Assembly: GCF_057098645.1 (NCBI RefSeq) | Contig: NZ_CM169472.1 | Length of the DNA stretch: 64,000 nucleotides | Reading direction: 5' to 3' (one strand) | Shown here: piece by piece, positions 18,001 to 24,000 of the stretch | Numbering within the stretch: the stretch's first letter is position 1 | Layout of the letters: every line of letters starts with the position of its first letter | Made by a program: the position numbers

Positions 18001-21000
18001 GTTTAAATTCGGGAGGATAATTAGGGCAGCCTTTTCGCCTGCCGGGAGTCACATTTTTCTGCATATCTGACACTTTGGTTCCCACTACTTATTTGGTGGA
18101 CACCACTTTGTCTAATTCGTCAGATTCTGACCAGACGGTTCAGGCTGTACGCTTACCAGAAATTGACACAACGGATTTATTCATCTCGACATACTCGTGC
18201 GTGAAAAAGGATACCGCTCAAAAAAGGGGAAAGAGCTTATAAGGCATGCTCAGACGTGACATTTACGCCATAGTCATTGACGGTCACTAAATGAATCTGC
18301 GCACCGGGAGCGACGCTGATGCCAGAGCGTAGTGTCCATTCAGTTGTGCTTTGAGGTGCAATCATGACGGAATTCGCGAGGGGGACTTTTTTACCGTTAT
18401 TAAGCAGTTCAGCGGCGCGAATCACGACGTAATAGCCTGTGGGATTCGTCACTTCTATGCGGTTATGTTTTACCTGATAAGTCAGGTTTTTTGGCGCGTC
18501 ACTGGATTTACCGACAATCGAGCTGGGACGATAGAAAATTTTGACTCGATTAGTCAGGGCCAGGATGAGCTGGTTCTGACTTTTGTCGTTCTTATTCAGA
18601 TAAGGTAGTTGACTGAAACTAAACCAGAAAACAGACTCGCGATCCTGCGGTAAATTATCACCAGTGTAGAGCAGGCGTAACGCCTGACCAGCGGCAGCTT
18701 CCATGCGAAATGTCTGCGGGGTTGGCATAAACGGTACATTCTTGTCAGAACCACGTTCATCCTCAACATGGATATTAATGATATAGGGCTGATCGCTGGT
18801 ATTGCGCAACTGGATGGTTTTTTCCTTTGCGTCACCAGGGAAAATAATACGGGTTCCGGTCATTACCACGCTGGCAAACGCGCTGCTGCTCATGCTCATG
18901 GAAAATACAAGTACCAGTAAATATGCAAAAATGTTCATTCTTATCTTTTCCATGTCCATGAAAAATCACTATTAATTGTGCAAAGAAATACTGGCTGACA
19001 TTTACTGCCAGCCAGTAGATTAATTAGAGGTAGCTCAGGGTGTATTCTGCGACAGCGGTAATTTTACCGGCAGTGGCAGCTGCGCTATCGATAACGAAGT
19101 AACGCGCACCGAAGTCGTAGCTGGCTTCAGTATCGCCAACTTTCAGGGTCAGACCCGGTACGTTAGTCGCGCCAGCCAGAGTTACTGGGTTACCAGAAGT
19201 GCTGGAATCCATTAACTGAATGCCAAAGCCTTTCGCCGCATCGCTGCTGGTATCACGGTTTCCCATAACACCCGTGCTAGCGTCAACGTCGTAGCCCAGG
19301 AAGGTGGTGTTAATTGCCTGATCTGCACCAGTTGGAGCCTGGCAGTTAGACACAGAAACCGTAAACGGCGTCTGGCCTGCGCTCTGACCATCAGCTAAAG
19401 TTGCACCGAAGTCAGCCATGGCTACGGTCGGCATCAATACTACTGAATTGGTTTGACCGTTGATATTAACGGAACAGGTCTGATCGGTTACTTCACCCTG
19501 AAAAGTGACTGTAGGCGCAGCCATAGTTGAAAAAGGTAATGCAATAGCTGCCAGCAGAGCTGCTTTTTTGAAAGTAGAAAACATAATAATATCCTTGAAA
19601 TTTAGAGTTAATATAGAACGAGTTAATTAATGCAATTGATACAATCTGACGTTTTTAAAACCGGTAAATCTCCTTAACTGTATAAGTGCCTTGAAAATGT
19701 AAAAACCATCACTATCACAAGCAATTTCAAACTTGTTAAAAACTGATATTTTATAGTGACTAATATACTTGACATCCTTTTTTAGCAGGGTGTGCAATAT
19801 TCTTTTATTATCTATCTTAAAATATAAGTAATAGATATCCCACTCATACCTTGTCAGAGTCACTTGCCTGACTTGCTGGTCTTTATCAGTACTTTTAATC
19901 AAAGTAATGAGTTTATTCAATTTTATATATCGGCTAATGAATGTTTGCTCGGAAAGTGAAAAAAAGATATTTCTGTTTTTCATCTTTCTTAGTGAAACAA
20001 TCATTAAAAACCTGGCCAAATCTGGCAGTTTTGCAAGTATACTTACGTCATCCACTGCGACAAGAAGTACGTTTTTGGTAAAGCGGTTATCAAATCTAAG
20101 TGTACTTAGGTCATTATTACATGCATTTTGAGAACAAAAAAAACACTCAATAAAAAAACGATAATGGTGACCTAGTTTTGCACTTAATCCCTGAAGGTAA
20201 TATAGATCATCCGAAATGATAATTACCCTTGTTAGTAAGTTCTTGTTCATTGCACTAACTCAATTGCTTGCAGCAAAACAGCCCATCTTCATGGAGTAAA
20301 AATTTTGAAAGTGAAAAAATCTTTTTACTAAAGATGTAACAATGGGCTTTCCATATGCGACATAACAACTGCAGTAACACAACTAATCTTTGCGTGTTCT
20401 TTATATAGAGAGTAACAGCATGATATCTGTATCTCTAAAAGAATAGCGATGTCCTGCAATCGATGAGCACAATATATGACATTCATCACATGTATAACAA
20501 TTGAATTTTCATTCATACTGATGTTGAACGGTAATATAGTAATTTAATTCTTACCGAAAGATGATGAACAGAGTTTTATTCTGGGTAATGGTGTTTTTTG
20601 CGATTTTCTCAGGTTGTAAATTCTGCATAATGGCTGAACCTATTACTTTTTATGTCAAAAAAGCCGTTTTTATAAGAATAAAACAACGATATTTAAGGGG
20701 GCTGGCAGCGGAGAAAAGGGTTAATAGAGTCATTTAAGATTACTTCAGCTTTTCCTGTGGTGAAAAATGAGCGGAATTGTAGCGCAATCTGTAAAAATAA
20801 TTCCTCTTAACTAATAAAAAATTGCTAATAATCATTGTGTTAGATCGATTTGTTGCAAAATAATAACAACGTTATTAAAATCATTACAATCTTTAATTTA
20901 GAATAACATTTTTATGAAGGCCAGAGTACGTTAAGGGATGATGTATAGCGGTGATTGCTATCAGATGGGAATGAAAGCTTGCCAAACCGTTTTGCTCTTC

Positions 21001-24000
21001 TTTCTCCCTTTCAACGATAAGCCAGGCATAATGTGGCTGCTTAAGCCAATTGTCGCAAAGCCAAAGATCTCTATATAGCTAACCTCATGGTTAATCCGAT
21101 CTCAGTAATACCATGAGAAAGAACTATTTCCTTTTTATGTAACTCTTAAGGGTTACAAGCGTGAATGCAAATGGTAATATAATGAAATGTCGCCTGCCCG
21201 TAATGACCATAAAGAATCTACCCCGACGTAAAAGATATAGAGAATAAGATGCAGTAATGATGATGCTTTGTTAATCAAATAACAAGATTTAAATTAATTG
21301 TAACTCATCAACTTTGTTGTTTTATTCGGATGTCTGAAATGATGTCGTACAGAAAACTACATATCATTTCAGATATCCTCTAAATTGGATTTTTTTCACC
21401 CAAGGAGGAAGGATGGGAAACTTTTAAATTATTGTGTTTTAGTAAGTTAGGTACTTCGCCGCTCGATGAAAAAACAATAACTCTTAGTTGTTTTTTGAGT
21501 CCTTATTTCAGCTTATTTTTCGTGATTTTTTATTGCGCCTGGTGATAGGATTTGCCGCAATCATTTTTGCTGATATTCCGTGAGTCATCAAAAGTGATCT
21601 GTATGTCCAAAATGAATAGCATCAATAAGGAAAACGTTAGTGGCGATGATAAATTTAAGTAAGGAAGCGACGGTGGGTAAAGCATTAACCCCTATTGCTA
21701 TACTTATGATGTTGTCTTTTCCTGTAGCTTCTCAAGCAGCTGGATTAGTCATAAAAAATGGAACGGTATATAACGCCAATGGTGTGCCAGTCGTTGACAT
21801 CAACAAACCTAACGGTAGCGGTTTATCTCATAATATCTGGGATAACCTAAACGTTGATAAAAATGGTGTCGTTTTCAATAACAGCGCTAATGAATCCAGT
21901 ACTTCACTTGCCGGAAATATTCAGGGAAACAGTAATCTGACCTCCGGGGCGGCGAAGGTGATCCTGAATGAGGTTACTTCCAAAAATCCTTCAACCATTA
22001 ATGGGATGATGGAAGTCGCAGGGGATAAAGCGGATCTGATTATTGCCAACCCGAATGGTATTACTGTAAACGGTGGTGGTTCAATCAATACAGGTAAACT
22101 GACCTTAACCACCGGGACGCCGGATATCCAGGATGACAAGCTGGCCGGTTACTCCGTGAACGGCGGTACCATTACGCTCGGTAAACTGGATAACGCCAGC
22201 CCGACAGAAATTCTGTCCCGTAACGTGGTGGTTAATGGCAAAGTGTCTGCCGATGAGCTGAACGTTGTTGCTGGCAATAACTATGTTAATGCCGCAGGCC
22301 AGGTGACCGGTAGCGTATCCGCCACGGGTTACCGTAACGGTTACAGCGTAGATGTTGCCAAACTGGGCGGAATGTATGCGAACAAAATTAGTCTGGTCAG
22401 CACCGAGAAAGGTGTAGGGGTTCGCAACCTGGGCGTTATCGCAGGTGGGGTTAATGGTGTCAGCATCGATTCCAAAGGTAATCTGTTAAACAGTAACGCC
22501 CAGATTCAGTCTGCAAGCACGATCAACCTGACGACAAATGGTACTCTGGATAACACCACCGGTACGGTGACATCTGTAGGCACTATCTCGCTCAATACCA
22601 ACAAGAATACTATCGTGAATACCCGTGCGGGTAACATCTCCACGATGGGCGATATCTACGTTAACAGTGGCACGATTGATAACACCAACGGCAAGCTCGC
22701 CGCAGCAGGTATGCTGGCGGTTGATACCAATAACGCCACGCTGATTAACTTTGGTAAAGGGAGTTCTGTCGGGATTGAAGCGGGGCTCGTGGCGCTGAAA
22801 ACCGGAACGCTCAACAACAGCAATGGTCAGATTCGCGGCGGTTATGTGGGGCTTGAATCAGGCGCGTTGAATAACAACAACGGTGATATTCAGACCACCG
22901 GCGATATCGCCATTATCAGTAACGGTAATGTGGATAACAACAAAGGTCTGATCCGTTCGTCCACCGGGCATATCGTTATTGGTGCGGCAGGTAGCGTAAA
23001 TAATGGTTCAACCAAAACCGCCGATACCGGCAGTTCTGACTCTCTGGGCATTATTGCAGATACCGGCGTAGAAATTGGTGCGAACAACATCAATAACAAC
23101 GGCGGACAGATTGCGTCTAATGGCAACGTCTCCCTGTCAAGTTACAGCACGGTCGACGATTATGCGGGCAAAATTCTGTCCAACAGCAAAGTGATTATCA
23201 AGGGAAGCTCACTGCGTAACGATACCGGGGGGATCAGCGGTAAGCAGGGTATTGAAGTCGCCGTTGGCGGCAGCCTGACCAATAACATTGGCGTGATCAG
23301 CTCTGAAGAAGGTGATATCTCCCTGTTAGCCAACTCAGTGGACAACCACGGCGGCTTCATGATGGGGCAGAACATCACGATGGAGTCGATGTCTGGTGTC
23401 AATAACAATACCGCGCTGATCGTGGCCAGTAAAAAACTGAAGATAAATGCGCGCGGCAGTATCGAAAACCGCGATGGCAATAACTTCGGTAATGCTTATG
23501 GTCTGTACTTCGGCATGCCTCAGCAAACGGGTGGAATGGTCGGCAAGGAAGGCATCGAGCTTTCCGGGCAGAACATCTATAACAACAACAGCCGTCTTAT
23601 CGCTGAGGATGGTCCTCTGACTCTGCAGGCGCAGAACACGTTCGACAACACGCGTGCTCTGGTCACCAGCGGGGCGGATGCATCTATTCAGGTTGGCGGA
23701 ACGTATTACAACAACTACGCTACCACCTGGAGTGCGGGCAACCTGGATATCGACGCGACCACGCTGCAAAACAGCAGCAGCGGTACGATGATCGATAACA
23801 ATGCGACCGGGTTTATTGCATCTGATAAAAATCTGTCACTGGAATTGGTGAATAGCCTTACCAACTACGGCTGGATCAGCGGTAAAGGCGATGTTGATGT
23901 CACGGTGAATAACGGCAACCTGTATAACCGCAATACCATTGCGGCTGAAAAGGGGCTGGATATTGCCGCGTTGAACGGTATTGAAAACTGGAAGGATATT

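Follow-up and report, generated by a model that had tools for sequence, protein, structure and literature searches.

The 64,000-nt (64-kb) stretch of DNA analysed here, referred to as the window, comes from contig NZ_CM169472.1 of RefSeq assembly GCF_057098645.1, and our subject is a 1389-nt AT-rich intergenic region within it (20251–21639) that separates the gene ECs1281 from otpA. The left edge of the region adjoins the ATG of a minus-strand open reading frame (ORF) of 207 residues, and the right edge adjoins the GTG of a plus-strand ORF of 1270 residues that encodes a TpsA exoprotein. The two flanking genes are divergent, ECs1281 on the minus strand and otpA on the plus strand, and point away from each other. 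RefSeq annotation of near-identical genomes gives identical gap boundaries, and among the RefSeq records listed for the 380 E. coli genomes with the interval, none annotates a feature between ECs1281 and otpA. Over the interval, E. coli O145:H28 RM12761 is 99.9% identical and O157:H7 about 97%. The gap corresponds to 1348686–1350075 in Sakai (NC_002695.2) and to 1434971–1436360 in EDL933 (NZ_CP008957.1). Gene order on the left runs pgaA, an EAL gene, a FidL-like gene, grvA, an SDR gene, a chaperone-usher fimbrial operon (loc6), ECs1281 and then the gap; on the right follow ECs1282/ECs1283, acpS and then fatty-acid and lipid genes. This annotated gene context identifies the locus as O-island 47 (OI-47), or S-loop 71, of enterohaemorrhagic E. 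coli (EHEC) O157:H7/O145:H28, with the OI-47 literature (PMC8565820; bioRxiv 10.1101/2020.04.13.038984) as our reference. ECs1282–1283 are the OtpA/OtpB two-partner secretion system, named in PMC5422565 and in the same preprint. The TpsA ORF carries a Pfam TPS secretion domain (2.3e-41) plus haemagglutinin repeats, and the next gene in the orthologous locus carries POTRA and ShlB domains, as a two-partner secretion pair does.

The island is present in 380 of the 5426 complete E. coli genomes. We reached a second version of it on metagenomic contigs (L019–L023) via homologues of the 207-residue protein. There, an island with identical gene order lies beside tRNA-Gly/actS in a different enterobacterial genus, that is, at another insertion site. 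The core gene next to the island, actS, has about 75% identity with its E. coli counterpart, OtpA is 89% identical, and the gap measures 1293 nt at 36.7% GC. The OI-47-type island is horizontally mobile.

The interval has 33.7% GC, against 47.6% for the window, and only 2.6% of equal-sized windows are equally AT-rich. It is also the longest stretch of the window without an ORF of at least 100 residues, the runners-up measuring 726 and 677 nt. Both of these are AT-rich as well: 47795–48520 has 32.9% GC, and 8112–8788, with 31.9% GC, precedes the grvA-like regulator gene (7299–8111) as a divergent intergenic gap. The AT-rich block extends past the interval, from about 19416 to 21815, and takes in the whole 207-residue gene; the lowest-GC window of 1389 nt begins at 19527. 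The sequence-only reading of this DNA had described a long, ORF-poor, horizontally acquired AT-rich stretch between a fimbrial regulator and tpsA. Its coordinates proved exact, and the composition, the acquired origin and the tpsA identification all stand. The regulator label is unsupported: the 207-residue protein has no family or PDB match, and comparison with MatA/EcpR gave an hhalign probability of 0.7%.

The interval is non-coding. Its longest stop-free frame spans 71 codons, compared with 74 +/- 15 in composition-preserving shuffles, and searches of Pfam and NCBIfam with every stop-free frame of at least 46 residues returned no match even at E = 10. We judged the integrity of small ORFs on an alignment of seven E. 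coli haplotypes. A 58-residue ORF with a lipoprotein-like signal peptide (20561–20737, stop or frameshift) and a 62-residue ORF (20328–20516) are broken in O157 and other haplotypes, a 46-residue ORF (20938–21078) is disrupted by a stop or frameshift in other haplotypes, and a 4-codon ORF with the strong Shine-Dalgarno sequence AAGGAGG ahead of it (21404–21430) is broken or altered in other haplotypes. The sole frame left open across the haplotypes is a 41-codon ORF with a TTG start in a substitution-poor stretch. An Rfam 15 scan of 19000–23000 gave no covariance-model match at E <= 1, and Rfam searches of the orthologous and related loci returned nothing except a tRNA. Phage records contained no match to the interval, and the two "plasmid" matches are mislabelled chromosome sequence. 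Repeats within the interval are short and at chance level, apart from the hairpin described below.

Comparison among haplotypes and with the other-genus island divides the interval into three zones. Within E. coli, both ends of the gap differ by 0–3% in 150-nt windows and the middle by 8–21%, with a peak at 20750–20898. For the flanking genes, ECs1281 and otpA, the E. coli haplotypes farthest from the window show a synonymous divergence (dS) of 0.10–0.14 from it, with a nonsynonymous-to-synonymous ratio (dN/dS) of about 0–0.1. Measured against this dS, the flanks of the gap are constrained and its centre is approximately neutral. Synonymous sites are saturated relative to the other-genus copy, and anything still alignable to it is therefore under selection. 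Only 20449–20552 and 21236–21638 align to the L019 gap in blastn; the central 680 nt or so has no detectable similarity to the L019 intergenic region in this search. The interval thus consists of about 300 bp of constrained DNA on the fimbrial side, a drifting centre of about 680 bp and about 400 bp of constrained DNA on the otpA side. In the central spacer the sequence drifts, with length and AT-richness retained.

On the fimbrial side, the conserved block contains one minus-strand candidate promoter, TTGTTA-18-TATATT, which a consensus scan picked out and which predicts a 5' untranslated region (UTR) of about 215 nt. Over the 600 nt upstream of the 207-residue gene, no other sigma-70-like candidate is conserved. 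Both hexamers of TTGTTA-18-TATATT are kept in the divergent orthologues L019 and L023, where the spacer varies. Scans of the interval for Fur, CRP, FNR, RcsAB and H-NS motifs gave a single notable match, a CRP-like site at 20472–20493, which we dropped as L019 does not keep it.

On the otpA side, GTGATT-18-TAGGAT is the only plus-strand sigma-70-like candidate found at matching alignment columns in L019. It has an extended -10 element (TGnTAGGAT, 21543–21551), lies inside the invariant blocks TTATTTTTCGTGATTTTTTATTG and TGATAGGATTTGC, and predicts a transcription start near 21558 with a 5' UTR of about 82 nt. On the Sakai numbering, the two -10 hexamers are TATATT at 1348907–1348912 (complement) and TAGGAT at 1349982–1349987. 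Within this UTR, a possible stem at 21548–21608 also appears in the L019 fold. Most of its columns are invariant; where it varies, pairing is generally kept by a change on one side, and a single pair is compensatory. The GTG at 21640 is the RefSeq start of otpA, and it gives an N-terminal length that agrees with homologues in other genera. A second conserved possible start, GTG 21673, stands behind a strong AAGGAAG, and the study of EDL933 transcription starts (PMC10469882) takes ATG 21646 as the start. E. coli and L019 differ at five positions between 21615 and 21639, and each of these occupies the same codon phase in the otpA frame, which in E. coli is closed upstream by a TGA at 21613. Two T-runs vary by one base among haplotypes, at 21390–21396 (T6/T7/T8) and at 21491–21496 (T6/T7), the latter about 60–67 nt upstream of the predicted otpA start.

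The otpA-side zone also holds a 21-bp hairpin, at 21328–21378 (Sakai 1349763–1349813), that is unique within the window. It folds at -27.6 kcal/mol on the plus strand (z = -5.8) versus -21.6 kcal/mol on the minus strand. Neither the arms, TGAAATGAT and ATCATTTCA, nor the 19-nt interval varies in any haplotype or in L019, and around the arms the other-genus sequence is otherwise unalignable. Outer and inner stem positions vary with pairing kept (G-C to A-U, G-U to G-C or A-U, U-A to U-G), and one haplotype has a U-U mismatch in the stem. Across the six distinct sequences compared, pairing holds in 92.9% of cells, and 3 of the 21 pairs show compensatory double changes. The covariation score was reached in 4 of 500 shuffles, and slid controls were only 25–48% paired. 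G-U pairs are tolerated on the plus strand only. The hairpin is not terminator-like because the U-run lies 6–12 nt off the stem: the 8 bases after the stem include only 4 U, and a U7 run begins 12 nt downstream. A scan of the region likewise returned zero terminator-like sites. The hairpin was not found upstream of the related operons in other genera, and a metagenome scan with its core gave 120 loci, 3 of them orthologous and the rest chance matches.

Table 1. Elements of the ECs1281–otpA intergenic region and its flanking genes (window coordinates).
Feature	Coordinates	Strand	Description or basis
Gene ECs1281 (207 residues, WP_001039007)	19627..20250	-	Leads the loc6 fimbrial operon
Intergenic region between ECs1281-like gene and otpA	20251..21639		Non-coding; ORF, annotation, Rfam and Pfam/NCBIfam checks
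Conserved block of the fimbrial-side control zone	20449..20552		blastn vs L019: 68% identity, 106 nt, E 5e-9
Candidate sigma-70 promoter, 207-residue gene/loc6	20471..20500	-	-35 TTGTTA 20500-20495, 18-nt spacer, -10 TATATT 20476-20471
Fast-evolving AT-rich central spacer	20553..21235		About 680 nt; no conserved sequence; ORFs disrupted in other haplotypes
Conserved otpA-side control zone	21236..21639	+	Hairpin, promoter candidate, 5' UTR; blastn vs L019: 65%, 421 nt, E 6e-37
Conserved 21-bp stem-loop	21328..21378	+	Arms TGAAATGAT / ATCATTTCA, fixed 19-nt interval
Candidate otpA promoter	21522..21551	+	-35 GTGATT 21522-21527, TG 21543-21544, -10 TAGGAT 21546-21551
Possible 5'-UTR stem (weak)	21548..21608	+	RNAalifold consensus; conserved arms, variable loop
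Shine-Dalgarno AAGGA and otpA GTG start	21627..21642	+	Sequence; conserved in L019
otpA (TpsA exoprotein)	21640..25452	+	First gene of the otpAB-acpS-fatty-acid/lipid operon; Pfam TPS and Fil_haemagg

Transcription of the locus can be viewed in published Cappable-seq data for EDL933, which cover growth at 37 C in LB, LB with malic acid, LB with NaCl and M9, each sampled in both exponential and stationary phase (PMC10469882). The gene-associated starts in Table S5 of that study include those of pgaA, ycdT, the EAL gene, grvA and the distal chaperone, and the next belongs only to RS07275; for RS07190–RS07270, otpA included, the table has no gene-associated start site in any of the 8 conditions. 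The one start it lists for otpA is weak, at 1436432, seen in 2 of 8 conditions and located 71 nt inside the gene, at about 21711 of the window. The same study places reproducible antisense starts (EDL933 coordinates, NZ_CP008957.1) inside otpA at 1437317, 1437626, 1437886 and 1438899, and inside the fimbrial genes at 1429799, 1431325, 1432242 and 1433659; several of these appear in all 8 conditions, and the stretch they span corresponds to about 15–24 kb of the window. As far as the gene-associated starts go, the picture is what a laboratory-silent operon would give, and it leaves the predicted promoters neither confirmed nor excluded. The region is AT-rich over several hundred bp, lies in acquired DNA and has no gene-associated start sites tabulated for its operons in standard culture, as silenced regions do. 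Silencing by a nucleoid protein of the H-NS type is plausible.

Taken together, we read the interval as the divergent control region of an acquired island, serving two operons, minus-strand ECs1281–loc6 and plus-strand otpAB-lipid, and we put the probability of this reading at roughly 0.6. The fimbrial-side module (20251–20552) would consist of the TTGTTA-18-TATATT candidate and its leader of about 215 nt. The otpA-side module (21236–21639) would combine the 21-bp hairpin, the extended -10 candidate and a 5' UTR of about 80 nt with the ribosome-binding site. Between them, the central spacer (20553–21235) would drift neutrally with its length and AT-richness kept, and the AT-rich DNA including this spacer may serve as the platform for H-NS-type silencing, leaving both operons presumably off in laboratory media at 37 C. 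The hairpin may act as an insulator that keeps read-through from the spacer away from the otpA promoter, or may form part of a longer leader made from a distal promoter. In kind, the interval is an ordinary member of a familiar class of regulatory regions; what is unusual is how long it is and how sharply its conserved flanks differ from a neutral centre.

The sequence-only reading had proposed that the interval holds the promoter and leader of the long tps-lipid operon. This is reasonable for the otpA side, because about 400 bp there are conserved in L019 with one conserved candidate, and it is incomplete in that the region serves both directions and only its flanks are constrained. Promoter prediction, which that reading had named as a check, yielded one conserved candidate per strand. 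Published transcript mapping comes near the refuting condition of that reading, a lack of start sites in the interval: across the 8 conditions, Table S5 of PMC10469882 assigns no gene-associated start to the 250 bp upstream of otpA (RS07215), nor to those upstream of the fimbrial genes, an absence that equally fits a silent operon.

This missing start counts against a divergent control region, and several further points do too. Both promoter candidates match the consensus weakly (7–9 of 12 positions), and promoter-like sites in the region (13) show no excess over shuffles (10.8 +/- 3.5). Since such matches are no commoner than in shuffles, we derive the candidate promoter positions from conservation. 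The high-affinity H-NS motif of Lang, TCGATAAATT, is not enriched, with 1 site at 8 or more of 10 matches compared with 3.8 +/- 2.0 in shuffles; the shortfall is only weak evidence against H-NS because H-NS binding does not require this motif. The kept length of the spacer could stem from history instead of selection. Finally, the hairpin lies about 180–230 nt upstream of the predicted otpA start, outside the predicted leader, and its plus-strand-only G-U pairs hint that it is transcribed, which would need a promoter further upstream. These two properties of the hairpin pull in different directions: the distance from the predicted start favours a DNA-level or insulating role, and wobble pairs that work on the plus strand only favour transcription.

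If the hairpin is transcribed, a distal promoter upstream of 21328 would produce a leader RNA of at least 310 nt that exerts its control once transcription has begun, by way of processing, stability, attenuation or a ribosome-binding site masked through the conserved complementarity of UUUUUUAUUG and CAAUAAGGAA. The hairpin variants, which keep pairing via plus-strand-only G-U wobbles and one G-C to A-U double change, agree with such a leader, as do the continuous conservation from 21236 to the start codon and an RNAalifold consensus that pairs 21526–21535 with the Shine-Dalgarno region. We nevertheless consider a long leader unlikely. There is no conserved promoter candidate upstream of the hairpin, the one E. 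coli candidate (TTGTTA-16-TAAATT, 21268–21295) being lost in L019; the anti-Shine-Dalgarno pairing falls on invariant columns and shows no covariation; and the absence of an Rfam match and of such a hairpin upstream of related operons in other genera also speaks against it.

A second alternative takes the interval, chiefly its centre, as the decayed remains of one or more lost genes, with function limited to short promoters at the ends. The centre does diverge at or above the synonymous rate, with indels of 1–4 bp, and the 58- and 62-residue ORFs of the window's haplotype are broken in O157 and other haplotypes. Against such decay, no frame has a Pfam or NCBIfam match even at the permissive threshold used, a tblastn search of the interval with every upstream ORF of 11 related loci yielded only noise, and the stop-free frames are no longer than those of shuffled sequence. 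A comparable spacer in the other-genus island (1293 nt) and in related operons is also unexpected under bacterial deletion bias. We regard this explanation as improbable.

An independent small RNA of about 95–140 nt, transcribed from the plus strand from about 21236 or 21304 to 21397 and ending at the hairpin and U-rich run, would account for a conserved block that begins about 90 nt before the hairpin and for U-rich sequence after the hairpin in both lineages, and in E. coli the TTGTTA-16-TAAATT candidate could drive it. The placing of the U-run 6–12 nt from the stem is not that of a terminator, the promoter candidate is not kept in L019, no Rfam family matches, the Hfq-crosslinking supplement of PMC4104026 has no ECs1281/1282 entry, and a 2021 review lists no small RNA for OI-47, which together make it very improbable. 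A phase-variation switch for the fimbrial operon, as an invertible promoter or a Dam/Lrp (pap-like) switch, is suggested by the position upstream of a chaperone-usher operon, several GATC sites and many short inverted repeats, but is largely refuted, as 380 of 380 genomes are collinear, in one piece and in a single orientation, there is no adjacent recombinase gene, no long repeats surround a segment of about 300 bp (only short ones at chance level), and the GATC sites (20843, 21066, 21098 and 21596) are unlike the pap spacing of about 102 bp.

The setting of the divergent control region can be compared with that of related operons. An acpS-SDR-FabZ-ACP cluster likewise follows the genes for OtpA relatives in Enterobacter, Kosakonia, Rahnella, Buttiauxella, Mixta, Tenebrionibacter, Acinetobacter and others. 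Their upstream regions have no similarity to the window in blastn and share no common proximal motif, and, Enterobacter and Mixta excepted, they are unlike one another too. In 6 of 11 related tps-lipid operons, an ORF-free gap of 1.0–1.6 kb precedes tpsA, with a GC content 5–15 points under that of the locus; in the others the gap is 0.28–0.58 kb at 34–36% GC. These gaps make a long AT-rich upstream region a recurring companion of tps-lipid operons. In Enterobacter (L007–L009, about 5900–9660), three same-strand genes (about 380, 149 and 715 residues) and a gap of only about 290 nt stand before the otpA-like gene, in place of a fimbrial operon and a long gap. A bolder proposal would have two parts: that the hairpin and its downstream blocks are a new cis element of OI-47-type islands, a leader RNA or insulator gating the otpAB-lipid operon, and that the long AT-rich spacer upstream of tps-lipid operons in several genera is a selected feature. 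We offer this as speculation, with the odds well against it.

Among known systems, the csgDEFG–csgBAC intergenic region of E. coli curli is a divergent control region of about 750 bp in the core genome. Like it, the interval is long, AT-rich and gene-free, separates two divergent operons for surface structures and has promoter-proximal modules at both ends; unlike it, the interval is about twice as long (1389 versus about 750 bp), belongs to an accessory island and has a centre without sequence constraint. In the ecp (mat) operon, the regulator EcpR/MatA is encoded by the first gene, and H-NS silences the control region. The resemblance extends to a chaperone-usher operon, a first gene of about 200 codons and an AT-rich upstream region, whereas the 207-residue protein has neither detectable similarity to MatA/EcpR nor a GerE/LuxR Pfam match, and the analogy is positional only. 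The two-partner secretion promoter of Bordetella fhaB is under the control of BvgA. The otpA side likewise precedes a gene for a TpsA exoprotein and, by analogy, is probably activator-dependent; it differs in its tpsA-tpsB order followed by an acyl-carrier/fatty-acid synthesis cluster. In contrast to other two-partner secretion promoters, the upstream sequence is shared with no related locus outside the OI-47-type island. H-NS-silenced LEE1/ler in EHEC (PMC10877973) offers a parallel for silencing, with AT content far above the host average, location on an O-island and no detectable start site in standard media; unlike LEE1/ler, silencing of the present region is a proposal by analogy. For GrvA, the regulator encoded nearby on the island, the literature drawn on here reports no link to these operons.

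ECs1281 is a real gene, with about 31% GC, and is strongly conserved within E. coli (dN/dS of about 0–0.03). It is also a near-orphan: a search of 5.8 billion proteins turned up no more than two homologues, both distant (56% and 54% identity). In the other-genus island the protein is only about 55% identical, where OtpA is 89%. Profile searches of Pfam, NCBIfam and PDB gave no match, none to GerE even at E = 10, which together with the hhalign result leaves an assignment to LuxR/GerE-type fimbrial regulators (EcpR/MatA, FimZ) unsupported. The AlphaFold model is unusable (pLDDT 38.8). By eye, the C-terminus resembles the LuxR-type helix-turn-helix pattern, which we treat as a lead only.

Downstream of ECs1281, two insertion sequences interrupt the loc6 fimbrial operon in the window's strain. 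An IS66-family element with inverted repeats at 15715–15736 and 18135–18156 and three ORFs (15752–18085) lies between the chaperone and usher genes, and an IS110-family transposase gene (12144–13340) abuts the 3' end of the usher ORF (13335–15698). Elsewhere, the usher gene has an IS3 insertion in RM12761 and is intact in O157 strains.

OI-47 sets the O157:H7/O55:H7/O145:H28 lineage apart from other E. coli. The map of control elements presented here, with two promoter candidates defined by conservation, a conserved hairpin and a dispensable-looking AT-rich spacer, provides targets through which the otpAB-lipid operon might be switched on and the role of OtpA and its lipid pathway learned.

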